Assembly (NCBI GenBank): GCA_050239825.1
Contig: JBFXGO010000007.1
Location: forward strand, 11,598 to 65,656
Length of the DNA stretch: 54,059 nt
Reading direction: 5' to 3'
From: a bacterium
Lineage (GTDB): Bacteria > Hydrothermota > 32-111
Position numbers and translations under genes: made by a program. The notes under the pieces are model-generated. The model was not told where the DNA came from. It did no database searches and was given only the letters and a program-made list of their open reading frames with translations. Positions 8,634 through 31,144 of this stretch are shown one piece after another; within the stretch, counting starts at the first letter, position 1, and the number at the start of each line of letters is the position of its first letter.

Positions 8634-9956
8634 TTATAGAATTTTCTCCATTTGTTTTAATATTTCATCTACTCTCTCTCTTGTCTTGAATTCGCATATT
8701 ATTCTTATAATCGGCTCAGTGCCTGATTTTCTCACATGGAGGAATCCGTCGCTGAACTTGACCCTTAGTCCGTCCGTCTTCTCAAGGTTGAAGCACTTAA
8801 AATGCTCCTCAGCCCTCTCAAGAACAGACGCTGAAGAGACATCGTATTTTCTCTTCTCCATGTATGTCTTAGGGTAATCCGAAATAATCTCATCTACAGA
8901 CATCTTGGATTCGGCAAGCATGCTTATTAGAAGAGCGCATGCAACCAAAGCATCCCGTGTGAGGTTTATCGACGGAAGAATCACTCCTCCGTTTCCCTCA
9001 CCGCCTATAACAGCCTTGTTGAGCATTATGCCGTCAACTACATTCGCCTCTCCGACGGGAGTGCGGGTTACCTTGAAACCGAGTTTCTCTCCAAGAAGTT
9101 CAAGCATCATGCTTGTTGACTGATTTATCACAATTAGTTTCTTGTTGTATTTCGTCAGGGCGTAGAGACCCGACAGAGCAAGAGTGTACTCTTCAGATAT
9201 ACAGCCCCTTTCCGGCGTCACAATGGCTATTCTGTCTCCGTCTCCGTCCGTAGCAAGCCCTATGTCAGCCCCTGTTCTCTTGACTTCTTTTTCAAGCATC
9301 TTGAGGTTTATTGGTATAGGTTCGAGAGGGCGCTTGAACTTTCCGTCAGTATTTGTATTTATTGTGTGAAGCTTCACGCCGAGTCCTTCAAGAAGTTCGG
9401 CGATAACAATGCTTCCTGCTCCGCAACCGCCGTCAAATACAACCTTGAGCTTTCTATTTTTTATTTTTGCTTTGTTTACAAACGGAAGATTCAACACAGC
9501 TTGAATATGTTTTTTATAGAGTGTAAAATCATTTTTGTTTGACTTGAAGATGGACTTGAATTTCAGAGGCGTCTCTTCAAGCTTCATGAACATTCTGTAA
9601 TCAGCGTGATTCAAAAATCTGCCCTGTTTTGATACAAGCTTGATGCCATTGTACTCAGGCGGGTTGTGTGAGGCAGTGATGATAAATCCGCCGTCAAATT
9701 TGAGGTTTCTCACAAGGAAGAGAACCGTGGGAGTAGGCACAATGCCCGTAAATGTTGTCTCCAATCCCTTGTAATTGAGAGTGGAAAGGAAGATCTCGGA
9801 GAATGAGCTTCCTGATTTCCTTGTATCCATTCCTCCTATGACTCTGCCCGATTCGACAAAGTCGCCGAAAATGGATGCAAACTTTGCAACCCTCATGGGG
9901 TTAAGGTCCTCTCCGACGAGACCTCTTATGCCGGAAACGCTTCTTATTAGTGTCAT
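8634..9956 (-). CDS. glmM: Phosphoglucosamine mutase / phosphohexomutase
   Basis: TASHNP phospho-Ser motif, DGDGDR metal loop, GGEGNGG, RKSGTEP; adjacent to glmS. Confidence 0.85.
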   Translation of the reverse strand: MTLIRSVSGIRGLVGEDLNPMRVAKFASIFGDFVESGRVIGGMDTRKSGSSFSEIFLSTLNYKGLETTFTGIVPTPTVLFLVRNLKFDGGFIITASHNPPEYNGIKLVSKQGRFLNHADYRMFMKLEETPLKFKSIFKSNKNDFTLYKKHIQAVLNLPFVNKAKIKNRKLKVVFDGGCGAGSIVIAELLEGLGVKLHTINTNTDGKFKRPLEPIPINLKMLEKEVKRTGADIGLATDGDGDRIAIVTPERGCISEEYTLALSGLYALTKYNKKLIVINQSTSMMLELLGEKLGFKVTRTPVGEANVVDGIMLNKAVIGGEGNGGVILPSINLTRDALVACALLISMLAESKMSVDEIISDYPKTYMEKRKYDVSSASVLERAEEHFKCFNLEKTDGLRVKFSDGFLHVRKSGTEPIIRIICEFKTRERVDEILKQMEKIL

Positions 9957-10067: not shown

Positions 10068-10757
10068 TTAACTTCTGAAAAATACAGATAATCCGAAATC
10101 AATTGAGTAAATAATAGATTCAAAACTTTTTTTATCCAATAAAGGTTTACTTTCTAAACCCACAGACAAATAAGGCATAAACCATGATTCTCCCATATTA
10201 TGCATTTCGTTTCCATAAAAAAGATTTATTTCAAATCTCTCTCCCGAACTTTGAGAACTAGTGGGCCAGCCAGAGTCAGTCCAATCAACAAATCCGGCTC
10301 TTGCTCTTACTGTCGGGTTAAAATTATAGTAGTTTGCAACTTGCGACTTGTAGATTTCCGATGAAAGATAAATCCCTCTTTCAGTATAAACTGCACCGAA
10401 AAAATAATATGCATCAAATACAATAGACATTGACGGATATGAATTGCTCTCTCTTATCAAGGACTTTGATATAAAAGCATCAGCATAACATAATCCGTAT
10501 GAAACTCCTGACACGAACCCGTTTCCCCATCCTACTCTCGATGTCAAAGTGAAAATTTTTGAGGCATTTGGTTCGTGTGAGTAACTGAAAAATTGATAAG
10601 ACCAGCTAACAGATTTACTTTTCGTAAATAATTCGGAATACCCTAAACTCGCTCCAACCTCATACTCACCCGGCTCCAATACCCTTGCAGAATGAAACAA
10701 TGTCACGCAGTTGGTGAAGAGAAGAACCAATCCAATAAATCCAATTATCCGCCTCAT
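10068..10757 (-). CDS. Hypothetical lipoprotein, family A copy 1
   Basis: Lipobox-like LLFTNC; first 31 aa identical to A2/A3; beta-strand-rich remainder. Confidence 0.8.
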   Translation of the reverse strand: MRRIIGFIGLVLLFTNCVTLFHSARVLEPGEYEVGASLGYSELFTKSKSVSWSYQFFSYSHEPNASKIFTLTSRVGWGNGFVSGVSYGLCYADAFISKSLIRESNSYPSMSIVFDAYYFFGAVYTERGIYLSSEIYKSQVANYYNFNPTVRARAGFVDWTDSGWPTSSQSSGERFEINLFYGNEMHNMGESWFMPYLSVGLESKPLLDKKSFESIIYSIDFGLSVFFRS

Positions 10758-10821
10758 GAAAAAATCATAGCACTTTTTTAAAAATATTCAATAGTAAATA
10801 CACAAAGATATTGACACTTTG
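10665..10821. repeat. Direct repeat R1 (family A 5' end plus divergent promoter)
   Basis: 157 bp identical to 14999-15155; 10665-10784 identical to 19357-19476. Confidence 0.95.
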
Positions 10822-10844
10822 GTTGAATGTAGTAAAATAATCGA
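10758..10844. promoter_or_regulatory. Back-to-back leaderless promoter module 1
   Basis: Minus: TTGAAT-16-TATGAT-6 nt-ATG(10757); plus: TTGACA(10811)-16-TAAAAT(10833)-6 nt-ATG(10845). Confidence 0.7.
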
Positions 10845-11795
10845 ATGGGGAAAAAAATTGTCTTGGAAATTTCATTGTTTATCTTTACATTCACTGCAAT
10901 TTTTCCTTATGAGGTAATAGGCATTGTCTCTGATTCTGTAAAGACCGAGATTCTTTTGAAGAAGGAGCGGTATAGCGAGCATATTTCACTCTTTCCATTT
11001 GGGGCTGATTCAGTGCGAATAGACGGAAGAATAGTCAGCTTTGATGATTCCATATCAGTTGACGATAGGGAGCTCGTAAGAAGCGTGGAATATTTCTCTC
11101 CCTGCATGAGCACAGATAGTATGCTTCTCTTCATGTCGCCCAGCAGCAAGAATATTCTTCTCTTTGACGAAGAGAGAAGGGGGTTATATACATTAAAGAC
11201 TACTGGCTTGGAAAAGTATGAAAGCTATTTCTCAGTTTCATCATTTCTTCTTCCGGCATTGACCTTTCTGCTTATTCCTGTCTTATACATTTTCGGAAAA
11301 GTGCGCGGAGCTGACAACAAAGACATAGAAGAAATATATACCAGCCAGATAGGTCCCACATTCTCCTTCTTTCTTGTTTCTCTCCTCTACTCCGCAGCGG
11401 AACTTGGATTTTACTATTTAATTAAGAACTCATTCAAAAAGAACACAGATAACGGCAACATCAAGAAATCATTTTTAGAAGGAATGTATGCGGCTAAGAG
11501 AGAAGTAAGATTAAATATCGTGACTGACTTTGCCATTTCATGCGGAGAATTCATTCCAATGGCAATAACTGTTCCGTTTATTGCCATATCTGTGGTGCAG
11601 GAAAAGTTTCGTGATAGGAATGACGCATCAATCGCGGCGGCATTGTGGATTCTCTTCTCGATTCTCCATTATGCAAAGAATGTAGCTTATCTGATGAAGG
11701 ACCCTGAGCATTTGATTCTGAAATCAGAGCTGGCAAGCGGAAGCAAAGACCTTTTTTATATGAGAGGATACATTGAAGGAATCAACCAAGAATAA
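10845..11795 (+). CDS. Hypothetical exported/membrane protein, family B copy 1
   Basis: Signal-like N-terminus, several hydrophobic helices; paralog of 16819-17757 (PYE.IGIV.D..KTEILLKK, FG.DSV.IDG, GS.D.F..RGYI.G). Confidence 0.8.
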   Translation: MGKKIVLEISLFIFTFTAIFPYEVIGIVSDSVKTEILLKKERYSEHISLFPFGADSVRIDGRIVSFDDSISVDDRELVRSVEYFSPCMSTDSMLLFMSPSSKNILLFDEERRGLYTLKTTGLEKYESYFSVSSFLLPALTFLLIPVLYIFGKVRGADNKDIEEIYTSQIGPTFSFFLVSLLYSAAELGFYYLIKNSFKKNTDNGNIKKSFLEGMYAAKREVRLNIVTDFAISCGEFIPMAITVPFIAISVVQEKFRDRNDASIAAALWILFSILHYAKNVAYLMKDPEHLILKSELASGSKDLFYMRGYIEGINQE

Positions 11796-12318
11796 GTTTA
11801 TTCTGATTCTGTTATCTGTCGCAGCGGGATTCCTGCTTGGGGGGGAGATAATCGATTTCAGAATTTCCGAAATTGACTCTCTGACTCTGGAGGAGAGAGT
11901 TTTGGTCGAGCGGAATAAGCTTGACGGCTATATTTCATCATTGGATTCTTTTGTTTCGACTTGGGCATACTCGGACTCATTAGATTTAAATCCTCTCTCA
12001 CGACTGCCTGTCGAAATAATTGCGATTCACCATGAAGCTGATTGTTCCTTCGCGGCAAGAAGATATGCACTTCTTGGAAAGATGAAGAAAAAATACGAGT
12101 TTTCTTTTGAAGAAAGAAGGAAAAAGAATGAAAGGATTGAATGGGTAAGGAATTCTGTAAGCGGGGCGTTAATTCTTCTTCAGACAGGATATACGCTTTA
12201 TAGGATGCTGGCTTATGAAGATGAAACCGGACCTGCATATCTTGGAGTGGCAGCTCTGCTTGATCTTTGCGTCCTGCTCATCCATTTGCAAACGAGTGAA
12301 ATTATTTACACAGAATGA
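11773..12318 (+). CDS. Hypothetical membrane protein, family C copy 1
   Basis: Paralog of 17735-18298 (GeIIDF, EERVL, PVEI..IH, LIL.QT.Y, DL..LL.H.Q); TTG start at the equivalent position in both copies after a GAGG-like RBS. Confidence 0.75.
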   Translation: MKESTKNKFILILLSVAAGFLLGGEIIDFRISEIDSLTLEERVLVERNKLDGYISSLDSFVSTWAYSDSLDLNPLSRLPVEIIAIHHEADCSFAARRYALLGKMKKKYEFSFEERRKKNERIEWVRNSVSGALILLQTGYTLYRMLAYEDETGPAYLGVAALLDLCVLLIHLQTSEIIYTE

Positions 12319-12782
12319 AAAGACTGATTTTACTTATTATCCTTTTGCCTTTGATTGCTACAGCGAATGAGCCGAGTCTAAAGGATTACTACAGAATGGG
12401 CTATGATGAAGGAATTGATTTTGCAAAAAGCAACAAAAGTATAAATGACAAATCTTTCTGTTCAAATGCCGGGTACTGCCTCTCCCTCTCATTTACTGAT
12501 GTGGTAATGGGGATTACCACATCTGCCGCATTTGTTATGTTGGCTCCTCTCGTTCTTTCAGATGAGGCAATATACGATGGTTGGGGCTTTTTCACGCAGA
12601 CAGCTTTTCAGCTTAGTTTTGAGATGTTTGTTATGCGGTGCGCCGGACTCATTTATGAAAGACTCAGAATAAAGGATGAGTTTGACATACTGAAGAAGAG
12701 AAAAGATTTCATCAATGACTCCTACAAGGCAGGATTCATTGACGGTGCGAAAAGCATTTACAATAAAAAGGTAAAATTTTAA
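12315..12782 (+). CDS. Hypothetical exported/membrane protein, family D copy 1
   Basis: Signal peptide; paralog of 18295-18759 (YR.GYDEG..FA, DE.DI.K...DF.N..YK.GF.DGAKSIYN.K..F). Confidence 0.8.
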   Translation: MKRLILLIILLPLIATANEPSLKDYYRMGYDEGIDFAKSNKSINDKSFCSNAGYCLSLSFTDVVMGITTSAAFVMLAPLVLSDEAIYDGWGFFTQTAFQLSFEMFVMRCAGLIYERLRIKDEFDILKKRKDFINDSYKAGFIDGAKSIYNKKVKF

Positions 12783-12827
12783 TTGCTGATGAACGGCAAA
12801 ATATCATGTTCAGTTAACGGAGAACAA

Positions 12828-13802
12828 ATGAAAAAAGAACGGAATATCTTTTCGGCCCTTTTTCTTCGCATTTATTTTTGTTGTCTCTGCTTGATTCTGT
12901 TTACTGCGGACTGCAGTTTCCTGAATCCGGATTCAAGGTATATATCAAAAGTTTCGGATGAAGGGATAATGGGTGTATTTGATACGATAGTAACCGATTC
13001 ACTCATATTCTGTGATTACCAAAGCTACATTCTGCAGTTGTATTCATGCAATAAAGAGACACCGCTGACTCTTGAAAGGGAAGTTGAAGGTGAAGGAGAT
13101 TTCAGCTCGATGACATATGACGGCAGGCATCTTGCGGCATTTGCGGAATCAACCATTATTATCTACAATCCCCTTTCTCTGGCACGGGTCTGCGAAGAAC
13201 ATGTGAATTTTGAGTATGGTTCCATCGAAATCAAAGACACCCTTCTTTATCTGATTCCCCTATATGATGACAACGGATATATATACATTTACACGGTTGA
13301 TTTTCTTCTTCAGGATATAACTTTGATTGATTCATTCCCGGAGTTTGATACGCACGATCTTTCCCGGGGAGAAGAAATTTGGTTTCTCTCAAAGTATGAC
13401 TCTCTCTACTTCTGCAGGGCGGATTCGGCGGGTTTCCTTGAGAAAATAGCCGGTGTACCGACTGAGTATTCCACTATTGGCATAAACTGCGACACTCTTT
13501 TCGTAGCGGTTTACACCGACAAGATAGTGAAGCTCTATCTCGAAAACAGAGAATTGAAAAGCGACACAATCGTTTTGGATCTTCAATCGATAGGCATGGA
13601 AGGGGAGTACATGAAATGTTTGTACTCCGAGGGCGGTTATTTTTACTGCATATTTGAGATTAACTACAACGGCAGACTCTTTGCTTATTCAAGAGCAGAG
13701 AAGAAGTTTGTCTCCTGGATTGAGGATCCCAGCGTCTGGAAGTGCGGAATCAATGATAATTTTATCTATGCCAATAATGGGATATATCTGAAGCCGCAAT
13801 AA
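12828..13802 (+). CDS. Hypothetical probable lipoprotein, beta-rich (propeller-like), family E copy 1
   Basis: GGAG RBS before ATG 12828; paralog of 15179-16120 (P.SRY..K.S, ITDSLIF, DG.HLAAF.E.T, C.YS.GGY). Confidence 0.75.
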   Translation: MKKERNIFSALFLRIYFCCLCLILFTADCSFLNPDSRYISKVSDEGIMGVFDTIVTDSLIFCDYQSYILQLYSCNKETPLTLEREVEGEGDFSSMTYDGRHLAAFAESTIIIYNPLSLARVCEEHVNFEYGSIEIKDTLLYLIPLYDDNGYIYIYTVDFLLQDITLIDSFPEFDTHDLSRGEEIWFLSKYDSLYFCRADSAGFLEKIAGVPTEYSTIGINCDTLFVAVYTDKIVKLYLENRELKSDTIVLDLQSIGMEGEYMKCLYSEGGYFYCIFEINYNGRLFAYSRAEKKFVSWIEDPSVWKCGINDNFIYANNGIYLKPQ

Positions 13803-13820
13803 TCAGAATATCTGGAAATC
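13800..13820. repeat. 21-bp E/F junction repeat, copy 1
   Basis: TAATCAGAATATCTGGAAATC identical at 16118-16138. Confidence 0.9.
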
Positions 13821-14405
13821 AAAGGCAATTCCCGAGTAAAAATAATCCATGTGCGAGTAAGTCACTTTTCTTATTAATCCGCTTTCAATCCTTATGGAGT
13901 GCATCATTCCTTCAATGGGTTTAAACGAAACTCCACAAAACAGCATTCCGGCATAGTTAAATTCTCCCGCGTATTCTGCCGCAGCTCCCGAGTAGAAGCT
14001 TATGCTTTTATCGAATTTTCGTCCGTAATAGAGAGTCGGTTTTATCAGCGAGGGCATAATTTCCTGTAGCATGAGGCTTCCCATTGAAATTTTGGCTGTG
14101 ACGATGTTATTATCTTTTTCAAAAATCAAAAACTTTGCGCCACCGCAGATCCTTTCAAAATCCATCTGACCGCTTAATTCTAATCTGTCTGTGATTCCTG
14201 CTCTTACCTGTATTCCTCCGAATGCGTTTTCATAATTGTCAAAACCCCTGTAGTAAAGTTCGTCGCTTCTCTCTATGTAATTGTGGTAACCGGAAACGGA
14301 TGCGACAACTGAATACTTCTCAAGGAGCTCTGCCTGCTCAAGCATCGGCAGGCAACCGGTAAATATTAACAGTGAAAAAAGAAGAAGGATTATAATTTTC
14401 ATCAT
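13803..14405 (-). CDS. Hypothetical lipoprotein, family F copy 1
   Basis: Lipobox IFTGC; ends DFQIF; paralog of 16121-16729 (GITDR.ELSGQ.D.ER, LQE..PS..KP.L.YGRK). Confidence 0.8.
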   Translation of the reverse strand: MMKIIILLLFSLLIFTGCLPMLEQAELLEKYSVVASVSGYHNYIERSDELYYRGFDNYENAFGGIQVRAGITDRLELSGQMDFERICGGAKFLIFEKDNNIVTAKISMGSLMLQEIMPSLIKPTLYYGRKFDKSISFYSGAAAEYAGEFNYAGMLFCGVSFKPIEGMMHSIRIESGLIRKVTYSHMDYFYSGIAFDFQIF

Positions 14406-15091
14406 CTTTGCGACCTTCTTGAAAGAGTGAAATCAAGATTAAGTTCAAAGGAGAGGGGACCCTCAGCCCATGATTGTTTCCCATACATGAATTCAACGGA
14501 TGCGGCCGCGATTATGAAGGATGTCTCAGTAACCTTCATTTCATTGCCGATTGTCAGACCCACTACGGGCAGATGCCCCGAATAGCTGTATCCAGACATT
14601 ATGTCTGCTGTGGACCACAGCTTGTAACCGCCCCTGATTCTCAGAAACGGATTGATATTGTCATTTCCCTCATATCTGCTCTTAAATAGGTCGAGAGAGG
14701 CGCCTGCCGCATACTCACCGTGAATAAGAACCCATGTTATGGAAAAATCAGTTGTAATTGCTACAGAAGGCAATTTGCCGCTCTCCGCTACTATCCTCTT
14801 GGTCACAAAGAAGTCAATGAAAGGAAGACCGAGGTAAGCGCCTGTATTGAGTCCGTCTCTCCAGCCGTTTCTAACAAATAACCCGATGGGCGGAGTTGAA
14901 GGCGCTCTGAACTCTATAAAATTTCTTTCATTTCCCAATATGTTTTCATAATCCTGAGTGCTCATTCCGGCAAGCGTAAATGATCCACCCGTCTCTGTCT
15001 CACCCGGCTCCAATACCCTTGCAGAATGAAACAATGTCACGCAGTTGGTGAAGAGAAGAACCAATCCAATAAATCCAATTATCCGCCTCAT
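14402..15091 (-). CDS. Hypothetical lipoprotein, family A copy 2
   Basis: Same N-terminus as A1/A3; stop overlaps F1 start (ATGA). Confidence 0.8.
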   Translation of the reverse strand: MRRIIGFIGLVLLFTNCVTLFHSARVLEPGETETGGSFTLAGMSTQDYENILGNERNFIEFRAPSTPPIGLFVRNGWRDGLNTGAYLGLPFIDFFVTKRIVAESGKLPSVAITTDFSITWVLIHGEYAAGASLDLFKSRYEGNDNINPFLRIRGGYKLWSTADIMSGYSYSGHLPVVGLTIGNEMKVTETSFIIAAASVEFMYGKQSWAEGPLSFELNLDFTLSRRSQR

Positions 15092-15155
15092 GAAAAAATC
15101 ATAGCACTTTTTTAAAAATATTCAATAGTAAATACACAAAGATATTGACACTTTG
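14978..15155. repeat. Direct repeat R2
   Basis: 14999-15155 identical to R1 (offset 4334); 14978-15118 identical to R3 (offset 4358). Confidence 0.95.
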
Positions 15156-15178
15156 TTTGAAATAGATATGATAATAAA
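15092..15178. promoter_or_regulatory. Back-to-back leaderless promoter module 2
   Basis: Minus side identical to module 1; plus: TTGACA(15145)-16-TATGAT(15167)-6 nt-ATG(15179). Confidence 0.7.
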
Positions 15179-16120
15179 ATGGGGAAAAAAAGCACATTCA
15201 TTCTGGTTTTTTTGTTAAGTTTAAGTGTACTAAATTCATGTTATTTTTTTGATCCCGAATCAAGGTACCTGCCTAAAATATCCGAAGACATCTGCATCGG
15301 CAATTTCAGCAGCTGCATTACCGATTCGCTTATTTTCAAAGCGAACAACTATTACATAGAAGTAAACAGATGCAGTGAAACAACTCCCGCGAGTCTTTTG
15401 AAAAGAATCGATACCGAAAGCGAAGTCACGGACATTGATTTTGACGGAAAACACCTTGCCGCTTTTCAGGAAACCACTCTTCTGGTTTATGACCCGATAA
15501 CCCTATCCGTTGCTGCAAGTGCAAATGTTTACGGATTTGAAGGGACTGTTGAAATTGATGACACTTTGCTTTACGCAACCGACAGATGGGATTTTTCGGA
15601 CAATATATCGGTATATTATATTGATTTTGAAAATCAGGAACTGATTCTGCGCGATTCGATTATGGAATCCGGTGTTCTGTCAATTGACAAGGGGAAGGAT
15701 TATTTTCTGATACAAAAAGAAGATACGGCAATTATATGCAGAGTAAATGATTTACACACACTAGAAAGAATCGGATGGTTCTTCAACAGTGATGCCGTCT
15801 TTTTCAGAAATGATACAGTCTTCGAAATCTTTAATGAAAATGTGCTGATTTTCCATTTGGATTCAGGTGTTTTAGAATGTGATACAATCTCTCTTGAAAA
15901 GATTTATGAGGATTTGGAATTGGACAGCTATGAGTGTATTTATTCGGACGGCGGATATTTGTATTTGGGTCTTGCAAATAACAATTCATCCCGCCTTTTC
16001 GTATATTCTATGGAGGAAAATAAAGTCCTCTCCTGGACAGAAGAAAATCTGATCTGGTACTGCGAAGGAAACAGTCATTTTATTTATACCGATATCGGAG
16101 TTTATCAAAAGCAAGAGTAA
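15179..16120 (+). CDS. Hypothetical lipoprotein, family E copy 2
   Basis: Lipobox-like VLNSC; paralog of E1. Confidence 0.8.
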   Translation: MGKKSTFILVFLLSLSVLNSCYFFDPESRYLPKISEDICIGNFSSCITDSLIFKANNYYIEVNRCSETTPASLLKRIDTESEVTDIDFDGKHLAAFQETTLLVYDPITLSVAASANVYGFEGTVEIDDTLLYATDRWDFSDNISVYYIDFENQELILRDSIMESGVLSIDKGKDYFLIQKEDTAIICRVNDLHTLERIGWFFNSDAVFFRNDTVFEIFNENVLIFHLDSGVLECDTISLEKIYEDLELDSYECIYSDGGYLYLGLANNNSSRLFVYSMEENKVLSWTEENLIWYCEGNSHFIYTDIGVYQKQE

Positions 16121-16138
16121 TCAGAATATCTGGAAATC
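16118..16138. repeat. 21-bp E/F junction repeat, copy 2
   Basis: Identical to 13800-13820. Confidence 0.9.
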
Positions 16139-16729
16139 TATCCCTATACCGGCATAGTAAAAATCATAATCAGAAAAGGTGATGCGTCTGACAAATCCGC
16201 ATTCAATTTTCAGACAGTGCAGCATATTTGAAAAGGGCTTGACAACTCCTCCGAAAAACAACATTCCACCGCAGTCGGTTGGGTTTCTGTATTCAAAAGC
16301 CGTTCCGCCGTATATGCTGAAATTATTGTTTATTTTTCTTCCGTAAAAAAGCGCCGGTTTCACGATAGATGGAAGCATCTCCTGAAGGATTAGAGTTCCC
16401 ACCGAAAGTTTTGCTGAAATAATGTTATTATGTCCTGAATAGAGGAGAAACTTTGCGCCTGCATAAGCTCTTTCCAAATCTGCCTGCCCGCTTAATTCAA
16501 TGCGGTCTGTCAAGCCGCCCCTCAGCTGAAATCCTCCCAATTCAAACGCATATCCGGCACCATAATCCTCGGGAGGGAAATAAAATGATTTATATGCGAG
16601 AAGGGAAGAGACAACGGAATTTTTTTCTATGAACCCTGCCTGCTCTATCATCGGAAGACAACCGGAAAACAGAATCATTCCGAACAATAATAACAGTCCC
16701 ATTTTAAAATGCTGAAATAACCGCCTCAT
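16121..16729 (-). CDS. Hypothetical lipoprotein, family F copy 2
   Basis: Lipobox LFSGC; ends DFQIF; paralog of F1. Confidence 0.8.
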   Translation of the reverse strand: MRRLFQHFKMGLLLLFGMILFSGCLPMIEQAGFIEKNSVVSSLLAYKSFYFPPEDYGAGYAFELGGFQLRGGLTDRIELSGQADLERAYAGAKFLLYSGHNNIISAKLSVGTLILQEMLPSIVKPALFYGRKINNNFSIYGGTAFEYRNPTDCGGMLFFGGVVKPFSNMLHCLKIECGFVRRITFSDYDFYYAGIGIDFQIF

Positions 16730-16818
16730 AGAATTAATTTTATCATTAAAAAAAGAAATATCAAGAGGTAATATGAAATGCGCATTGACTTAAATTGATA
16801 TTGCAGTAAACTTATCAA
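16730..16818. promoter_or_regulatory. Back-to-back leaderless promoter module 3 (diverged sequence, same geometry)
   Basis: Minus: TTGATA-16-TAAAAT-7 nt-ATG(16729); plus: TTGACT(16785)-16-TAAACT(16807)-6 nt-ATG(16819). Confidence 0.65.
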
Positions 16819-17757
16819 ATGGGAAAAAAGATAGTATTCATTATGGCTATTTCGACATTCATTTGCAATACACTAATGCCATATGAAATCATAGGAATAG
16901 TAGAAGATGCTTATAAAACCGAAATACTTCTTAAGAAATCCGCTTACAATGAGAAAGTTGTTTTTTCGTCTTTTGGATCCGACTCAGTCAAGATTGACGG
17001 TAAACTATCCGAAAATGCCGACTCTATTTGTCTTGACAGTTTATACCTTCTGCGTAAGGTAACTTTTTATTCTCCTCTCGCTATGATGAAAAATATTGTT
17101 GATTCACTTGAATTTCAAAACAGGGAAATCTTAATGTACGGAGAAGGTTACAAAGGGAGATACAAACTCGATAAGGGAATTCTGAAAAAAACTCAGAGCC
17201 TGTTTAATTATCCCTCCTTGACGCTTCCATGCCTCTCTCTTCTTCTGATAACTTGTCTTTACGCATATGGAGAGGCGACAGAAAATGATGACATTAAGGA
17301 TGATTTTCATGAGCAGATCCCGGCATCTTATGAATTCTTTAAATATTCTCTCATTTATTCTTTGGCTGAGATGGCGGCAATCAAATTGGTTTCATTGCCG
17401 TTTCAGGATAGAACCGATGGAAATGATCCGTTAGAGAGCTATCAGAAGGGATTCAGGATGGCTGGAAGCCAAAATCAGGAGCTTGAAGCAGCCAGAGTGC
17501 TTTCTACCGCTGCGCATTCAGCTGCTCTTTTTATTCCCACTCTTATTGTTGTTGCATCAATCAACAAAAATGCCGAACGCGTTAACATTGAAGGGGCAAC
17601 TGAGTCATGGATTCTTTTCACGCTGATTCATTTTATTACTAATCAGACATATTGGGGAAAAAACAGCGAACAACTTTTCATGATGACGTCTTTCATAACA
17701 GGAAGCAGAGATATGTTCTTTTTGAGGGGCTACATTGACGGTTGTTATGAGAAATAA
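16819..17757 (+). CDS. Hypothetical exported/membrane protein, family B copy 2
   Basis: Paralog of B1. Confidence 0.8.
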   Translation: MGKKIVFIMAISTFICNTLMPYEIIGIVEDAYKTEILLKKSAYNEKVVFSSFGSDSVKIDGKLSENADSICLDSLYLLRKVTFYSPLAMMKNIVDSLEFQNREILMYGEGYKGRYKLDKGILKKTQSLFNYPSLTLPCLSLLLITCLYAYGEATENDDIKDDFHEQIPASYEFFKYSLIYSLAEMAAIKLVSLPFQDRTDGNDPLESYQKGFRMAGSQNQELEAARVLSTAAHSAALFIPTLIVVASINKNAERVNIEGATESWILFTLIHFITNQTYWGKNSEQLFMMTSFITGSRDMFFLRGYIDGCYEK

Positions 17758-18298
17758 ACTTATCTTTCTGATTGTTGCTGCTTCGGCAGCTCTCGCCATG
17801 ACAGGAGATATCATTGATTTTACCTTGACTCCTCTTGTCTCCGGAGAAAGCGAGGAGAGAGTGCTTTTAGACAAAAGCGAAATAAAGTTGTATCTGAAAT
17901 CTCTCGACCTCTCTCTCTCTTCATCGACAATAGACAGCAAACCTGCAGTTGATTTTGACGAGAATGAATCTTCAATGTTGATTCCGGTTGAAATTGTTAC
18001 AATTCATTCTTCATGCGACTCCCTATTTATGAAAGAGCGAATAAAATTCCTGGAAGAAAATATGAGGGATTATTCGTTTTCAAGAGAGAATAGAATCAAG
18101 AAAAATATGGGCAGGGAGACAGCAAGAACTGCCGTTTTAAGCAGTGTTATTCTGATACAGACGCTCTACTATCCCATAATGATGCTTCTCGGTGAAGACA
18201 GGCCTGATTACTCAATGGGAATTGCAGTAGTTGCGGTAATAGACCTTATCCTGCTGTTGGTGCACTGGCAGGGAACACAGACAATATACGGCGAATGA
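17735..18298 (+). CDS. Hypothetical membrane protein, family C copy 2
   Basis: Paralog of C1; TTG 17735 or ATG 17747 start. Confidence 0.75.
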   Translation: MTVVMRNKLIFLIVAASAALAMTGDIIDFTLTPLVSGESEERVLLDKSEIKLYLKSLDLSLSSSTIDSKPAVDFDENESSMLIPVEIVTIHSSCDSLFMKERIKFLEENMRDYSFSRENRIKKNMGRETARTAVLSSVILIQTLYYPIMMLLGEDRPDYSMGIAVVAVIDLILLLVHWQGTQTIYGE

Positions 18299-18759
18299 AA
18301 AGAATCATATTAATTTTTATTATTATTCCTCTCTTTATCTTCCCGGATGAAACTTCTCTGTTGGACAGTTACAGGGAAGGCTATGATGAAGGAAGAATTT
18401 TCGCCGAAAAGAACACCCCCCATTTCAAAAGCTTTGGATGGAAAGACGGATGCGAGTGTATTCCTGTTCTGCTGACCGACGCTATTGCCGGTCCTCTTCT
18501 AGCCGCCGCCGTCGTCGTATTAACTGCAGCAGCAATGGGGAAATCAGATGATGATGCTATCTCCTTTATACCTGAGATGGCGGCGCTTCTGACCGCAGAG
18601 ATTTTTGTTATGAGGGGTATGAATTGTCTTTTCGGAAAAACAAGGGCAGTTGATGAATATGACATTATAAAAATGAAGAATGATTTTCCGAATGAAGCGT
18701 ATAAGGAAGGTTTCCTGGACGGAGCAAAGAGCATTTACAATAGAAAATTCAGGTTCTGA
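18295..18759 (+). CDS. Hypothetical exported/membrane protein, family D copy 2
   Basis: Paralog of D1. Confidence 0.8.
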   Translation: MKRIILIFIIIPLFIFPDETSLLDSYREGYDEGRIFAEKNTPHFKSFGWKDGCECIPVLLTDAIAGPLLAAAVVVLTAAAMGKSDDDAISFIPEMAALLTAEIFVMRGMNCLFGKTRAVDEYDIIKMKNDFPNEAYKEGFLDGAKSIYNRKFRF

Positions 18760-18774
18760 AATTTATCAGGTATT

Positions 18775-19449
18775 TTATTTTCTTCTGAAAAAAGAGAGAC
18801 TGAGATTAAGCTCCACTGAAAACGGACCGCTTGCCCAACCGATCTCTCTGTATGATACCTCCAACCCCAAAGAAGTGGCAATAAAAGATGATTGTTTTAA
18901 CATTGTCTCGTTTCCGATAATAATCGCGAGAGACCCGTATCTTCCGGTGCTGGAGTTTCCCTCCAGCATATTATAAGATTGCCATGCATTATACGCTCCG
19001 CGGATTTTCAAAGATGGATTTGCCTTTGTCTTTCCGCTGTAATTGCTTTTGAAAAAATCGAGAGAGGCTCCTATTGAGAGGTTGTTGAAGAAAAGCACAG
19101 AGGTCAATCCCACATCTCCGGTCAATGCGCAGGAAGGAATGGAACCTGATTCCTTAAAAATTTGTTTTGTTGCGAAAAAATCTGCAAAAAGAAATCCAAG
19201 GTATGCGCCGGTATTTATACCGTTTCCCCATCCTCTGCGAGCGTATAAAGCTATCGGAGGTGTCGTAATGACCATCTGCTCAATCTGTCCCGACATTATA
19301 TTCCCGCTCTCCTGCGCCACTGTGCCGGAGAGAACAAATGATCCACCCGTCTCTGTCTCACCCGGCTCCAATACCCTTGCAGAATGAAACAATGTCACGC
19401 AGTTGGTGAAGAGAAGAACCAATCCAATAAATCCAATTATCCGCCTCAT
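18775..19449 (-). CDS. Hypothetical lipoprotein, family A copy 3
   Basis: First 38 aa identical to A2; shares TPPI.L..R.GW..G.NTGAYLG, GASLD.FKS, GNE, WA.GP.S.ELNL with A2. Confidence 0.8.
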   Translation of the reverse strand: MRRIIGFIGLVLLFTNCVTLFHSARVLEPGETETGGSFVLSGTVAQESGNIMSGQIEQMVITTPPIALYARRGWGNGINTGAYLGFLFADFFATKQIFKESGSIPSCALTGDVGLTSVLFFNNLSIGASLDFFKSNYSGKTKANPSLKIRGAYNAWQSYNMLEGNSSTGRYGSLAIIIGNETMLKQSSFIATSLGLEVSYREIGWASGPFSVELNLSLSFFRRK

Positions 19450-19476
19450 GAAAAAATCATAGCACTTTTTTAAAAA
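19336..19476. repeat. Direct repeat R3 (lacks the plus-strand promoter half)
   Basis: 141 bp identical to 14978-15118; ends 1 nt from the HD-gene stop codon. Confidence 0.95.
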
Positions 19477-19477
19477 A

Positions 19478-20278
19478 TTACAAGTACTCCATCATCTCCT
19501 GACCTATCACTCCGGCGTAAAGTTCGATGTATGGTCTGACAGGGGAGGAGAGTATCTTCGGAAAGAGTACTGATTCAATCTGGAAGAATCCCACCGATTC
19601 GCTCATTTTCACATCTATTCTTATCGGCTTTCTGCTTCCTTTTGAAATTGAAAGGTCCTGAATCGCTGTTGACGAGTACCTGTGGATGTCTCCCACCTTC
19701 GGTTTTGTCTTTAAGAGAGTCGGGATCCTTGCTCTGCCCTTCTCCATATCGCATCCGTCTCCTATAAGCACAAGCCCGGCTTCAATCGAATGTATCTTCT
19801 GAGTTGCCATGTGTCCGGCTATTCCCTCCATAATAAGCGAGCGCAGTATTATTCTTTTTTCCGCCTCTGTCTTATAAATCTCCTTTAAGAGTCGGTCAAT
19901 TATGTTGACTGCAAATATCATTGAATAAATTTCATGGTTATCCCTTCCCACAGTCATGCCAATGTCATGGAGCATTGATGCCGTAAAAACTGCGACCTTG
20001 CTGTCCTCGACTGAGCCGACCTGCTCAGACACGAGTGAAAACTGAACGCCCGCATCCTTTAAAAGGTCGAACATTATCATTGAATTGAGTGATGCGGTTT
20101 TCATGTGGACAGGCCCGTGGTCATTGAACCCCAACCTCTTTATCGAGACAATGTTGGCATAATCCATCAGATATTTTATCTCAAAATCATTGAATATGAA
20201 ATTTGCCATCTCAAGGCATTTCCCGCTTAATCGTTTAAGAATCTCTCTTTCAAGAGCTGTCTCTTTTTTTGATTTCAA
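19478..20278 (-). CDS. HD-superfamily metal-dependent phosphohydrolase (COG3294-like)
   Basis: NDHGPVH, LHDIGM, DGCDMEKGRAR motifs; AAGGAG RBS before TTG start. Confidence 0.85.
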   Translation of the reverse strand: MKSKKETALEREILKRLSGKCLEMANFIFNDFEIKYLMDYANIVSIKRLGFNDHGPVHMKTASLNSMIMFDLLKDAGVQFSLVSEQVGSVEDSKVAVFTASMLHDIGMTVGRDNHEIYSMIFAVNIIDRLLKEIYKTEAEKRIILRSLIMEGIAGHMATQKIHSIEAGLVLIGDGCDMEKGRARIPTLLKTKPKVGDIHRYSSTAIQDLSISKGSRKPIRIDVKMSESVGFFQIESVLFPKILSSPVRPYIELYAGVIGQEMMEYL

Positions 20279-20290
20279 ATTGACTCCTTT

Positions 20291-23095
20291 TTATTTTATT
20301 GTGGCAGTAATGCCGAAATCGAGTCTCTTCAACTCTTCATTGTATGTGACAACCAAGCCCGGGTATATTGAGAGAATCGACATATTTACGCAGAGGTTTA
20401 CGGAAGCTCTGGAGACAAACTCTCTCTTTTTCTCGTAAAAATTGTACCCTGCCAGCTGACTTAAAGAGACGGAGAGGTAATCAAACCTAACGGGGAGGGA
20501 TTCCATGAATTTAAACGGAATTCCTCTGTTGATGAACATTATCGGCTTCACAAACCCTGCCTTTATGTAAGAAAAATCTCGGATGTACAATTCATTGCTT
20601 AGTCCGTCCTCCTCAGGAGTAAAAGAGAGCAAAGGCATCAAATCATTCACATTCATAAAAGAATAAAGCGGCGACTGAGTTAATATCCCTGAACGAGAAT
20701 AATAGAAATTTGCATTTAGAAATAAATTAAAATTCCAAACAGGACTCATGTAAAATGAGCTTTTCAGCGATATACCGTAATCAAACATTACGGTGTCAGT
20801 CAAAAACTGAGACACATACCACTCAGATGATGCAACAAAACCCTTTGACGGAGTGATGCTCAATATTGAACTTTCATAATCAGATATACCGGTCTCAAAA
20901 GAAATTCCTTTCGAAGTATATTTAAAAACTGTGTCGAATACCGATGTTACGGCTTTTCTATATGAAATTGCGGGGGTCATGTAAAACCCGGTAAATGGTT
21001 TCATCCGTTCAAAATTCATTATCAGAGAAACTTGATAATCGTTTGGTAAATAACTTTTCAATCCTTCGTATTCATTATCTAAGATGACTCTGTTGAAAGA
21101 TAATTGAAAAGCAATATCATTTTCGAAATGTGAAGAGGTCAGTTCAATGTATGAAGGGTATATGAAATTCTTTTCGGTGCCGAATATAAGGACTGTAGGC
21201 ATTGTCGAATAGTAGAGAGTTAAAGCCTGTGAAATATCGCTGTTCAAACCTATAAAGGGAAGTCCCATAATTGCAAATGAAGATATGGGGTCGGGCAATA
21301 TAAACGGCAAAAATGCGTATGCTCCGGGGCCGGAGAATCTTGGAAGAATGTATTTCCCATTCTCTTTAAGTGTTACTTCCTGTTTTTTCAGTGAAGCCGG
21401 TATAACTATTTCTTCAAGAGATATTTCTTCTTCATTTTGTTCAAGAACCTTTGAAGAGTAAATGTCATCGCCATTTCCGCTGATATCCTGAACATAGACA
21501 ATGTTGTTTTCTTCGTCAACAGAATATGACGATACATTATATAATGAATTATATATCTTTCTGATTTTCTTTGATGCAAGGTCGTAGAAATAGACAGCGT
21601 TAACTTTGCTTCTGTCGGATATAAAATAGAATCCGTTATTGTTAACGCTCCACTGAGGCGAATGGTCTGTGGCAAGATCGGAAGTGAGAAACTCAATCTC
21701 TTTGGTAGTCATGTCGTACAGCACTATGTCTGTGAATCCTCCCTCTCTGTAGCATGAGATGAGGATGTTCTTTTCGTCTTTCGCCGAAATTGTATAGTAT
21801 TTGAAATCCTCTCCAAGCGAGAATGAATCAACCGCCAACCTCTTTGAGATGGAGTATACAATTATTTTCTGCTTATTGAATTGGTTGCGGATGAAAAGCA
21901 GAGTATCTCCGAATGCGTCTCCTCCGAAACCTCTCTTTGTGCCCTTCAGTTTTTCAAGTTTCGACTCTTTAATGTCATACTCATACATGTCAAAGAAGTA
22001 ATTCGTATTGTCATAAACATCCAGCATATCAATGTATATTTTATTATTGCGCACAGAGTAGTGCGTCGAGTAAGTCACTTTGAAAAGCTCCGTCTCCTCA
22101 TCATTCTCCCTTGCTACAAATCGCTTCTCTCTATGGGGGAATGATTTTATGTAGTAAAGTTTGTTATCAAAGCAGGATGGAAGCGAGTTATCAAAACCGA
22201 ATTCAGTCAGTTTTGTTCTTTCATTGAAAATCATATTTGATTTGAGGTTGTCTGTTCTCTTTTCAATATCCTTGTAAACATCATCAAGCGCATCCGATGG
22301 AAATGTCCCCATATTTGCGCGCGCCAGCAGGTCAGGGAATGCCACTGAAAAGGGAAGCAGGGAGCAAAAATCGAGGCGGGTGAGTCTGTCAGGGTTTGTA
22401 TTGTATTTTTCCCTATACTTATCCAGTATATATGGCCCGTAGAGGTATGGAAGCTCCGAATAAGGGAAGAATCTGTTGAAGTATGATGATGCATTTCCAA
22501 CAGGTTGTTTTGCAGAATCTAAAAGCATTGTCCTGAGAAGCGCTTCATATTTGGTGTCCTTCATTCTTCCTCTTCCGAGTATCGATTCATTGTAAACTGC
22601 GTAACCCTCAAGAAAATACATCGGATAAGCCGCGTTTGGAGCATAGAAGAGAGAGTTTCTTGTTATTGAAAGACATGAAGGCCTTGTCGCAGAGAGGTGC
22701 AGTGCGTGCGTAAGTTCGTGAGTCAGCACATACTCAACCCATTCGCCGTGCTTTGCTATGAATGTCGGGTCGGGATTTGCAAGATAGATGTTGACCATCG
22801 GATTAAGAAGGGGAGAGGATGAACCGTTCGGCACATCGGACTGGTCTGTGATAATCAGATTTATTTTTGTTCTGACTCTTGTGTGCATCAGATCCGACAG
22901 TGTGTCGTAAACACCTTCCGAGATTTTTGCAATTTCAGGGACAATATCCGATAATTCCTTTTTGTAAGTGTATGTGAAATGCTCTGACGATGAATACATC
23001 ACATCGCTCATGTCGTCAAACATCCTGAGAGATATTGTCTGCGAGGATAGCATTATTGACGGCAAAAGCATTAATAGTAAAAATAATTTTCTCAT
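20291..23095 (-). CDS. Large exported protein: zincin-like domain, TolB/PD40-like propeller, C-terminal beta-strand region
   Basis: Signal peptide; HELTH motif plus downstream EGYA; DHSPQWS..GFYFISDR repeat-like segment; amphipathic strands at C-terminus. Confidence 0.65.
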   Translation of the reverse strand: MRKLFLLLMLLPSIMLSSQTISLRMFDDMSDVMYSSSEHFTYTYKKELSDIVPEIAKISEGVYDTLSDLMHTRVRTKINLIITDQSDVPNGSSSPLLNPMVNIYLANPDPTFIAKHGEWVEYVLTHELTHALHLSATRPSCLSITRNSLFYAPNAAYPMYFLEGYAVYNESILGRGRMKDTKYEALLRTMLLDSAKQPVGNASSYFNRFFPYSELPYLYGPYILDKYREKYNTNPDRLTRLDFCSLLPFSVAFPDLLARANMGTFPSDALDDVYKDIEKRTDNLKSNMIFNERTKLTEFGFDNSLPSCFDNKLYYIKSFPHREKRFVARENDEETELFKVTYSTHYSVRNNKIYIDMLDVYDNTNYFFDMYEYDIKESKLEKLKGTKRGFGGDAFGDTLLFIRNQFNKQKIIVYSISKRLAVDSFSLGEDFKYYTISAKDEKNILISCYREGGFTDIVLYDMTTKEIEFLTSDLATDHSPQWSVNNNGFYFISDRSKVNAVYFYDLASKKIRKIYNSLYNVSSYSVDEENNIVYVQDISGNGDDIYSSKVLEQNEEEISLEEIVIPASLKKQEVTLKENGKYILPRFSGPGAYAFLPFILPDPISSFAIMGLPFIGLNSDISQALTLYYSTMPTVLIFGTEKNFIYPSYIELTSSHFENDIAFQLSFNRVILDNEYEGLKSYLPNDYQVSLIMNFERMKPFTGFYMTPAISYRKAVTSVFDTVFKYTSKGISFETGISDYESSILSITPSKGFVASSEWYVSQFLTDTVMFDYGISLKSSFYMSPVWNFNLFLNANFYYSRSGILTQSPLYSFMNVNDLMPLLSFTPEEDGLSNELYIRDFSYIKAGFVKPIMFINRGIPFKFMESLPVRFDYLSVSLSQLAGYNFYEKKREFVSRASVNLCVNMSILSIYPGLVVTYNEELKRLDFGITATIK

Positions 23096-30190: not shown

Positions 30191-30198
30191 GAGTGTTT

Positions 30199-31137
30199 AT
30201 GAAAAGAAGAATCTTGATAATTGTCGTAGCGCTTCTTATCTTCTCTTTTCTCAATGCCGAAAAATTCGGTTATATAAACTCTAAGGCGATATTCCAGAGA
30301 TACAAAGGAATAGAGGATATCAACAGAGAAATAGACAAGGAGCTTACGGAGTGGAACAAACAGATGGGTGAGATGCAGAATGAACTGTCAGAGCTTGAGC
30401 TGACATACAAAGAGCAGGAGGCTATGCTCTCTGAAGATGCAAAGATGAGAAAACAGCAGGAGATTTCTTCAAAGAGGGATGCGCTCAACAAATTCATAGA
30501 GGAGATATTCGGAGAGAGCGGAAAATCAACCACCATAAACAAGCAGATGCTCAAACCTGTCGCTGACAAGATTTCAAGCATAATAAAAAAGATCGGAGAT
30601 GAAGAGGGCTATACGATAATAGTAGATTTTGCCGATGGAAACATACTCTATGCACGAAAGGATGCCGACCTCACGGACAGAGTTTTGGAAGAGCTCAACA
30701 AAGAATTCTTCATACCTGTTGCGGCAATCAAAAGATACATTGTCTTTGATTTCGTGCCTGAAGACAAAGAGACAAGGAACGAACAGTATCACATAAAAAT
30801 GGCCAAGACTCTCTATACTTCTCTGAAAATTGAGAATAAAGTGGAGCCGGTCAACATCAAAGATGTGAATGACTATCTTAAAAAAGCGGGTATTACAAAT
30901 ATTGAAGACATGAAGCCTATGGACGCAATAAATTACGGAGTTGCTCTCAATGCTGATTACTCTGTCGCCGGAAAAATAAAAATGTCCGGCGGAAAAATAA
31001 TAATAAATGTGAAGCTATATTCGATGAAGATGCGGAATGAGGTTCTTAACATAGAAAAAGAGGCGTTGTCGGCTATTGACTTCAATGCGGTTGCGTCTGA
31101 GATATTGACGGAAATAAAAACATATATTGAAAAGTGA
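30199..31137 (+). CDS. skp: OmpH/Skp chaperone fused to an extra C-terminal domain
   Basis: KFGYIN, long coiled coil, ILYA...DLT..VL.EL ending near aa 170; ~140 extra aa; follows bamA. Confidence 0.75.
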   Translation: MKRRILIIVVALLIFSFLNAEKFGYINSKAIFQRYKGIEDINREIDKELTEWNKQMGEMQNELSELELTYKEQEAMLSEDAKMRKQQEISSKRDALNKFIEEIFGESGKSTTINKQMLKPVADKISSIIKKIGDEEGYTIIVDFADGNILYARKDADLTDRVLEELNKEFFIPVAAIKRYIVFDFVPEDKETRNEQYHIKMAKTLYTSLKIENKVEPVNIKDVNDYLKKAGITNIEDMKPMDAINYGVALNADYSVAGKIKMSGGKIIINVKLYSMKMRNEVLNIEKEALSAIDFNAVASEILTEIKTYIEK

Positions 31138-31144
31138 GGTGAAA

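Follow-up and report, generated by a model that had tools for sequence, protein, structure and literature searches.

How can three copies of a short sequence stay identical when they stand between gene units whose proteins have become very different from one another? This question is raised by a locus in a stretch of 54,059 nucleotides (nt), called the window here, which comprises bases 11598-65656 of contig JBFXGO010000007.1 in assembly GCA_050239825.1. The source is a 2.1-Mb metagenome-assembled genome of 67 contigs, estimated to be 99% complete, from a bacterium of the GTDB lineage Hydrothermota; 32-111 (genome G000). Between a glmM-like gene and a conserved gene of 266 amino acids (aa) lie 13 open reading frames (ORFs), in the order A1(-), B1 C1 D1 E1(+), F1 A2(-), E2(+), F2(-), B2 C2 D2(+), A3(-). 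An initial annotation had described these as two permuted units with one gene of each of six families, delimited by identical repeats. It proposed a hypervariable envelope locus whose units are exchanged by recombination at a constant site. Its 13 genes, six families, positions, strands and permuted order agree with the ORF listing, and the spacing of the repeats agrees with its unit lengths of 4334 and 4358 bp.

Our results point to a replacement-type genomic island of modular envelope genes as the probable nature of this locus. Gene conversion would keep the junction between the A 5' end and its promoter identical, homologous recombination would turn over the modules, and the beta-barrels would be the likely exposed, diversifying part. 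We regard the locus as a further instance of a known mode of surface variation, in which outer-membrane paralogs evolve in concert within a replacement island, and not as a new kind of system.

Concerted evolution of the A 5' tract

The direct repeat occurs three times in the locus, at spacings of 4334 and 4358 nt, and a search of the genome found no further copy. As the initial annotation claimed for the delimiting repeats, identity is complete, and it extends over 120 nt in all three copies (10665-10784 = 14999-15118 = 19357-19476). Pairwise, the exact tracts are longer: 157 nt between R1 and R2 (10665-10821 = 14999-15155) and 141 nt between R2 and R3 (14978-15118 = 19336-19476). The A1/A2 tract reaches further upstream and the A2/A3 tract further downstream. 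Because the ends of the tract differ by pair, at least two separate events must have produced it.

The common 120 nt correspond to nt -27 to +93 of each A gene, that is, to the promoter -10 region and the first 31 codons. They hold a promoter-like spacer and a -10 hexamer, TATGAT, 6 nt before the ATG, followed by the codons for the signal peptide including its Cys (MRRIIGFIGLVLLFTNC) and for the 14 residues that come after (VTLFHSARVLEPGE). In R1 and R2 the identity also takes in the divergent promoter of B1/E2 (TTGACA-16 nt-TAAAAT/TATGAT, 11/12 matches) and the first codons, MGKK, and in R2 and R3 it takes in 24 further coding nt. The initial annotation had taken the repeats for cassette-delimiting sites. 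They are instead the promoter and first 31 codons of A genes, and each 'delimiting repeat' is best described as a module junction, formed by the divergent B/A promoter region and 31 codons of the next A gene, and not as a dedicated cassette border. The unit borders have no inverted-repeat core; the best inverted repeats of the region are at most 28 nt long, with 70-83% identity, and lie off the borders. An Rfam search of the repeats gave no match, and junctions, promoters and 5' coding regions contain no tandem or simple-sequence repeats.

Promoter-like sites were located at 10791-10764 (-), 10811-10838 (+), 16764-16737 (-), 16785-16812 (+) and 19483-19456 (-). The count of such sites, 31 against 24.2 +/- 4.6 in shuffled sequence, is no excess, and we note their consistent placement alone. 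Only 6-7 nt separate the -10 hexamers from the start codons (ATG) of A1, A2, A3, F2, B1, E2 and B2, and these contain no Shine-Dalgarno-like sequence (10764-10838, 15098-15172, 16737-16812, 19456-19483). Transcripts of these seven genes may be leaderless or near-leaderless.

The A genes of three genomes were compared: the three of this genome, four of its congener G001 (locus L015) and two of its congener G002 (locus L016). In their first 93 coding nt, the A copies are 100% identical inside G000, 92-100% inside G001 and 95% inside G002, against 80-86% between genomes. Synonymous differences in the first 31 codons amount to 0/22.3 in all three G000 pairs, 0-4/22 in G001 and 2/21.5 in G002, against 7.3-11/22 between genomes. 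Past codon 31, orthologs are 79-89% and paralogs 28-53% identical. The tract shared in the congeners is just the 93 coding nt.

These comparisons show segmental concerted evolution of the A 5' tract, evidently by gene conversion between A copies that share a genome. One segment is alike within a genome and the remaining segments follow orthology, which is the pattern known from outer-membrane paralogs of Helicobacter pylori. The repeats are identical despite an old duplication because of this gene conversion. The argument of the initial annotation that ancient duplication would have eroded the repeats does not hold, since gene conversion accounts for their identity.

Part of the conservation of the tract is evidently functional. 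Its 31 codons encode the signal peptide and the motif C-[VL]-T-x-x-[HY]-S-[AP]-R-V-x-E-P, which is conserved across the whole A superfamily. A profile hidden Markov model search of 1.84 billion representative proteins returned 53 relatives of A (E <= 1e-3). Almost all are 157-248 aa long; one is a partial match within a protein of 4481 aa. Every remote relative that was read keeps the Cys and a motif of the type C-[LV]-T-x-x-Y-[HY]-S-[PA]-x-V-x-E-P.

Turnover of modules between two conserved genes

The interval between glmM and the 266-aa gene (the 'HD gene', a name from the first reading) was compared with that of the two congeners and of three metagenome contigs (L019, L020 and L021). This comparison, proposed in the initial annotation, found the interval empty, with one A gene, with one module, or with two modules in different order. 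Contents are listed here from the HD gene towards glmM, with arrowheads for direction. In L021 the interval is empty (630 nt, no A gene), and in L020 it holds one A gene, 46% identical to A1. In G002 it reads A2> F1> <E1 D1 C1 B1, A1>, and in this genome A3> <D2 C2 B2, F2> <E2, A2> F1> <E1 D1 C1 B1, A1>. In G001 it reads A2'> F1'> <E1' D1' C1' B1', A3'> F'> <D2' C2' B2', Ab> Aa>. The L019 contig ends within the repeat. The anchors are conserved: glmM is 84-92% identical in the congeners and adjoins the island in G001, G002, L020 and L021, and the 266-aa gene is 88-95% identical in G001, G002 and L019-L021.

The canonical module, in the same direction, is A> F> <(E)DCB. There are two old types of it, and a 'cap' A gene adjoins glmM. 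Our results show that module number varies from 0 to 2 and that the order of the two types is opposite in G000 and G001. The segment that G000 has in addition to the content of G002 carries the A 5' tract at both borders. A single chromosomal site between conserved core genes differs in content among close relatives, as is characteristic of replacement islands. The rule of one gene per family per unit is true of this genome and fails in G001, where one module lacks E and there is one extra A. In G000, unit 2 is a type-2 module with internal rearrangements: E2 has gained the promoter and start of the B type, and F2 starts like an A gene and has an upstream region of the A|B type.

Individual alleles have also moved. 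A1 of G000 and G002 is 86% identical in amino acids, with a proportion of synonymous differences (pS) of 0.30-0.32, compared with 0.61-0.77 (near saturation) for the flanks and most module genes and 0.67 for glmM. The A1 body is 87.8% identical in nucleotides between these genomes, the glmM body 79.4% and the repeat part of A1 81.7%; measured past codon 31, the values are 89% for A1 and 79% for A2. Similarly, B1 of G001 and G002 is 87% identical with a pS of 0.38, whereas the adjacent, overlapping C1 is 52% identical with a pS of 0.76 (B1 at L015 11447-12397 and L016 12426-13373). This places a sharp recombination breakpoint near the B/C overlap. Both cases indicate recent exchange of A1 and B1 alleles between species. 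Since its alleles differ in synonymous divergence, the island is a mosaic of allele ages.

Orthologous module proteins are 40-76% identical, the exchanged A1 and B1 (86-87%) aside, against 83-94% for glmS, glmM and the HD-motif gene. Module proteins evidently change much faster than the flanks. With pN, the nonsynonymous counterpart of pS, at 0.07-0.40 against a pS of 0.6-0.9, the island genes are to all appearances real genes under purifying selection. The proposal of a hypervariable envelope locus recombining at a constant site is borne out in part: the content of the interval varies, the borders lie at the A 5' repeat, and A1 and B1 have been exchanged. Pfam scans found no recombinase in the locus or next to it, and the repeats carry no structured site.

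Matches to the A profile occur in 14 of the 272 phylum genomes and in 7 of 13 further genomes of the family; G000 has three of them outside the island. In other genera of the family, barrel genes are present without B, C and D: E, F and A in G004 (L017 3383-5574), A, an F-like gene and A in G005 (L018 620-2565), and an F-like gene and A in G003 (L047 581-1917). None of these three clusters stands at the glmM site. Remote A-superfamily barrels of G000 are located at C18:8886-9491, C48:13745-14086 and C64:17337-17948 (loci L044-L046). Two of the three are directly beside another small signal-peptide protein (248-289 aa), and one such neighbour ends in an aromatic residue, which suggests that pairs of small barrels may be a recurring unit. 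No B-E-like genes were found beside these remote paralogs, and their context gave no functional clue.

Predicted proteins of the island and its surroundings

Each of the 13 proteins starts with a hydrophobic segment, to which B, C and D add more hydrophobic helices, in line with the signal peptides, lipoboxes or transmembrane helices that the initial annotation saw in every one. It had recognised no enzyme, integrase or capsid motif, and searches of four family libraries (Pfam, NCBIfam, PADLOC and PHROGs) likewise gave no significant match to the 13 proteins. That the six families are undescribed rests on these libraries and on the 'hypothetical protein' labels of database hits; no literature search was made. 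The paralogs had been said to match only in scattered motifs. Instead, they align over their full length (BLASTP E 1e-30 to 9e-83), with amino-acid identities of 38% for A1/A2, 34% for A1/A3, 53% for A2/A3, 35% for B, 36% for C, 42% for D, 33% for E and 48% for F. Consecutive genes overlap by 23 nt (B>C), 4 nt (C>D) and 4 nt (A>F), and the A>F overlap is kept in G000, G001, G002 and, in another genus, G004. The G+C content of the island is about 0.34-0.44, against about 0.44 in the flanks. The features are listed in Table 1. For E1, the ATG at 12828 agrees with the orthologs; the ORF listing has an alternative TTG at 12783.

Table 1. Positions in the window of the genes and repeats between and including the two anchors
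Feature	Position	Strand	Remarks
Left anchor: phosphoglucosamine-mutase-like glmM	8634..9956	-	Pfam PGM_PMM domains I-IV
A1, 'cap' copy adjoining glmM; lipobox-type 10-stranded outer-membrane barrel (predicted; fold modelled on A2)	10068..10757	-	ORF, family A member
R1: first 93 nt of A1, A promoter and most of divergent B promoter	10665..10821	.	157 nt exact with R2, 120 nt with R3
B1: membrane protein, N-terminal signal or anchor, ~110-aa domain, 3-4 hydrophobic helices	10845..11795	+	
C1: small membrane protein	11773..12318	+	23-nt overlap with B1
D1: small membrane protein	12315..12782	+	4-nt overlap with C1
E1: putative beta-propeller lipoprotein (fold inferred from paralog E2)	12828..13802	+	
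F1: putative lipoprotein, 10-stranded barrel (predicted), C-terminal DFQIF	13803..14405	-	4-nt overlap with A2
A2: lipobox-type 10-stranded outer-membrane barrel (predicted)	14402..15091	-	AlphaFold2 model
R2: A2 5' end and divergent promoter region	14978..15155	.	Equals R1 over 14999-15155 and R3 over 14978-15118
E2: beta-propeller lipoprotein (predicted), B-type promoter, MGKK start	15179..16120	+	ESM Atlas model; upstream region identical to that of B1
F2: barrel lipoprotein (predicted), A-like MRR start	16121..16729	-	48% identical to F1; upstream aligns with A|B intergenic regions
P: divergent promoter region F2/B2, diverged copy of A|B intergenic region	16730..16818	.	Alignment
B2	16819..17757	+	35% identical to B1; 46% to type-2 B of G001
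C2	17735..18298	+	Family C paralog
D2	18295..18759	+	Family D paralog
A3: outer-membrane barrel copy (predicted) adjoining HD-motif gene	18775..19449	-	55% identical to G001 A copy, L015:10684-11358
R3: A3 5' end, 27-nt promoter spacer and -10	19336..19476	.	141 nt exact with R2
Right anchor: conserved 266-aa 'HD gene'	19478..20278	-	No Pfam hit at E <= 1e-5

Profile and structure searches, also suggested in the initial annotation, predict barrels for A and F and a propeller for E, and gave no match for B, C and D beyond the island. The A2 model (AlphaFold2 on 21 sequences) has a predicted local distance difference test score (pLDDT) of 83.4 and a predicted template-modelling score (pTM) of 0.77, and its barrel was read as 10 strands. 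Among known structures it comes closest to barrels of 10 strands, namely OpcA (Z 15.4, root-mean-square deviation 3.1 for 176 aa), pOmpT (Z 15.3) and one designed protein (Z 14.7). With E-values of 8e-6 to 1e-3, Foldseek returned OmpA, Pla, OmpT, Ail and OpcA. The F1 model, based on 9 sequences, has ten strands, a pLDDT of 77.8 and a pTM of 0.74, with outer-membrane barrel hits in Foldseek at E 3e-4 and weaker. Hence A and F are predicted to fold as small 10-stranded outer-membrane beta-barrels, on shallow alignments of 21 and 9 rows. Genes for BamA and Skp occur in the window, and therefore an outer membrane is expected.

At the level of curated barrel families (Pfam, NCBIfam), 0/3 A and 0/2 F proteins pass at E <= 1, and none of the 27 remote A relatives scanned has a Pfam hit at E <= 0.01. 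The C-terminus of F is DFQIF in 6/7 aligned members; that of A is FFRS, SRRSQR or FFRRK, so that basic residues follow the final strand. F has a canonical lipobox, L-F-[ST]-G-C, and the E orthologs have T-S-G-C, with A-D-C in E1 and N-S-C in E2. Within the genus, the majority-residue fraction of A is 0.29 and 0.38 at the two longest predicted hairpin tips, 0.45-0.73 in most strands and 0.93-0.97 at the N-terminus. The variable tips would fit surface-exposed loops. In a profile alignment (hhalign) of A with F, just 34 N-terminal columns align, with a probability of 81%. A 'Bagel' propeller match of A among PDB profiles, covering 27 residues at E 8e-7, contains no stretch that passes alone and was treated as compositional. 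When PDB sequences were searched with the profiles of F, B, C, D and E, the best E-value was 0.17.

For E2, the model in the ESM Atlas has a pTM of 0.73 and reaches a template-modelling score of 0.73 with LVIVD-repeat beta-propellers, so that E is predicted to be a beta-propeller and is a putative lipoprotein. Judged from their sequences, B, C and D are small helical membrane proteins limited to this genus and island. A search of 5.8 billion proteins found 5 of family B. Of the 272 phylum genomes, 4 match the C profile, three of genus g1 and one marginally (E 3e-4, internal stop), and the D profile matches 3 of the 272. All B, C and D matches lie within this island. The ESM Atlas model of B is poor (pTM 0.32), with no hit above 0.78. 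A motif [YF]-x-x-G-[FY]-x-[DE]-G recurs at B1 residues 205-215 and 305-313 (a loop and the C-terminus) and at D1 residues 24-33 and 136-146 (after the signal peptide and at the C-terminus). Kinship of B and D through its Y-x-x-G-[FY]-x-[DE]-G form was not supported (hhalign probability 4%). A predicted complex of B, C and D, with D as partner, scored the same in a control with B replaced. A Tol-Pal-like reading of the membrane proteins, propeller and outer-membrane lipoprotein was dropped, as no sequence or fold link was found.

Beyond the HD-motif gene lies a gene for a 934-aa signal-peptide protein, at 20291-23095 (-), in which an HELTH motif was noticed by eye and Pfam gave no hit at E <= 1e-5. 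It is just 60-66% identical in the congeners, and its pace of change equals that of the island genes. Further on, 27917-31591 is an outer-membrane biogenesis neighbourhood with BamA (4 POTRA domains and Omp85), Skp/OmpH and FabZ-like genes, BamA and Skp being at 27917-31137. Two neighbouring genes for PASTA-repeat proteins stand at 34075-35678, with no kinase or transpeptidase domain detected.

Mechanism, alternatives and relation to known systems

How could such an island work? In one genus of an uncultured lineage, it occupies a fixed chromosomal place with glmM on one side and the conserved gene of 266 aa on the other. The A copies of a genome would convert one another repeatedly and so keep the junction tract identical. 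General, RecA-type homologous recombination at the tract and at the conserved flanks would duplicate, delete, reorder and import modules. This turnover of modules would diversify the barrels exposed at the surface, with phages or other antagonists that act on the cell surface as the probable selective force. B-E may have an accessory role or may form, together with the barrels, an assembly that spans the envelope. A more ambitious version would make each module a self-contained envelope-spanning apparatus (inner-membrane B-C-D, periplasmic propeller E, outer-membrane F and A) that acts as a variable receptor for kin or phage recognition. In that version the apparatus would be of a kind not described before, and the tract would have evolved as a recombination handle by which lineages could capture, exchange and rearrange entire modules, in a recombinase-free analogue of an integron for envelope machines of several genes. 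We consider it unlikely.

Several points weigh against our interpretation. One public sequencing run, with no RNA run listed, contains this DNA as contigs and probably represents the source sample; its contigs stop at all three repeats and none crosses, so that the order of the units is taken from the present assembly only. The comparison comprises three congeneric genomes and three short metagenome contigs. The synonymous divergence, dS, is saturated, which makes dN/dS unusable for detecting positive selection. Profile, PDB and ESM Atlas searches detected no relatives or fold of B, C and D outside the island. The A box is L-F-T-N-C, with Asn at -1, which leaves its lipidation uncertain; among the remote relatives both G-C and N-C occur, and the Cys hardly varies. 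Finally, the exposure of the A hairpin tips rests on the topology of the model.

An alternative explanation might be a dedicated cassette or mobile system of the integron or shufflon type, in which att-like repeats allow 4.3-kb circles to be excised and captured by a site-specific recombinase. Unit 2 lies exactly between identical repeats, as a single-crossover integration of a circle with one repeat would leave it, and module number varies at a constant site. However, Pfam detected no integrase, invertase or transposase in 37 flanking ORFs of at least 110 aa (50 in the window; the 13 locus genes were scanned separately and had no Pfam or NCBIfam hit). The sole recombination-type domain belongs to a Y1 (IS200-like) transposase gene 32 kb away, at 52065-52886 (-) (Y1_Tnp, E 2.9e-12). 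The repeat is coding sequence plus promoter, direct, without inverted-repeat core or Rfam structure; its pair-specific ends fit gene conversion and not a fixed site, and the congeners share just 93 coding nt of it. Contigs of the source run contain no circle or deletion joint, and no chimeric one, which is a weak test as only contigs were searched. A cassette system is therefore very unlikely. Programmed antigenic or phase variation in single cells, by expression-site switching or conversion from silent cassettes as in Mycoplasma vsp, Treponema tprK or Neisseria opa, is quite improbable too, if somewhat less so. Switching families join a conserved promoter and signal-peptide 5' end to variable bodies. 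The 5' architecture of the A genes resembles this, and homogenised 5' tracts would permit chimeras. Yet every A copy is full length with its own promoter-like site, which leaves no silent cassettes. The three promoter copies are equal in length, simple-sequence repeats are lacking in promoters and 5' coding regions, and in the source-run contigs just a minor variant with point differences, and no chimeric joint, was found.

Could the units be alleles of co-existing strains, or the result of a misjoin at the repeat? This is a metagenome assembly, its repeats of 141-157 nt are about as long as short reads, and the source-run contigs break at each of them. The minor variant of F1 and A2 (14048-14116 and 14504-14633) has a depth of ~5x, with 17-22x for the main form. 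Mean contig depths are 21.7 for the left flank, 20.2 for unit 1, 17.0 for unit 2 and 21.9 for the right flank; the unit depths are similar to those of the flanks and do not sum to them, although per-contig k-mer depth is a weak measure. Unit 2 is about 5x below the flanks, which together with the minor variant might point to a co-occurring strain that lacks unit 2 or differs there, although per-contig depth cannot show this. Also against an artefact, G001 is an independent assembly that likewise contains two modules and a tandem set of four A genes, with shared tracts that are shorter, and concerted evolution is seen in all three genomes. We thus regard an artefact as highly unlikely. Still less credible is a static ancient duplication in which recombination plays no part and the repeats persist only because purifying selection acts on the encoded signal peptide and N-terminal motif. 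Conservation of that motif across the whole superfamily would be expected in such a case. However, selection at the protein level accounts neither for the lack of any synonymous difference within the genome, against roughly 45% between genomes, nor for the identity of 27-64 non-coding nt, and the differences in module number and order would also be left without a cause.

The replacement island with gene conversion at its module junctions can be compared with known systems. Its closest counterpart in evolutionary behaviour is provided by the H. pylori pairs babA/babB, homA/homB and sabA/sabB, in which one segment is more alike within a strain than between strains and the rest diverges (PMC3960876). 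Recombination between loci there gives chimeras and variation in copy number or locus (PMC3960876). Segmental concerted evolution is common to both cases. The homogenised segment in H. pylori is the 3' end of single, scattered genes for large adhesins, whereas here it is the promoter and 31 codons at the 5' end, in tandem six-gene modules with small barrels. That recombination yields chimeras or copy changes in our case is inferred from the pair-specific tract ends and from the differences between genomes.

The closest genomic concept is that of replacement flexible genomic islands (PMC4033161), surface-structure islands which free-living prokaryotes exchange through homologous recombination in the conserved flanks. 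The present locus has in common with them a constant site between core genes, variable content in close relatives, envelope-related products and a G+C content below that of the flanks. Such islands mostly carry glycosyltransferase or O-antigen genes and are swapped whole. In contrast, the present island is modular, has an internal homogenised tract, and encodes proteins that are not for glycan synthesis. With integrons and shufflons it shares repeated units between identical short sequences, variable in number and order. It differs from them in having no recombinase and no attC-like or inverted site, in units with their own promoters, and in a 'site' that is the 5' end of a gene.

The Mycoplasma vsp/vlp and Treponema tpr subfamilies combine an identical 5' expression region and signal peptide with divergent mature parts, and undergo gene conversion. 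Here, silent copies and phase-variable repeats are absent, and the barrel genes are part of multi-gene modules. With Neisseria OpcA/Opa and the omptins (OmpT/Pla), A shares the predicted fold of 10 antiparallel strands with long hairpins, at whose tips its variable segments would lie. However, A is not a member of these sequence families (no Pfam hit at E <= 1), and it has a lipobox-type Cys and a conserved motif after the Cys, both of which, to our knowledge, the OpcA/Opa and omptin families lack.

The locus opens no new class of genetic mechanism. It would nevertheless offer a clean natural case in which a short homogenised gene front end both marks and drives the turnover of modular envelope genes at one site. 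Its proteins include two unnamed families of predicted 10-stranded barrels that bear a lipobox, one with about 50 representatives at 50% identity, and three membrane-protein families limited to this genus and island. For candidate phyla, such a locus marks the most variable, and so probably the most exposed, part of the envelope, which is likely the surface that phages contact.

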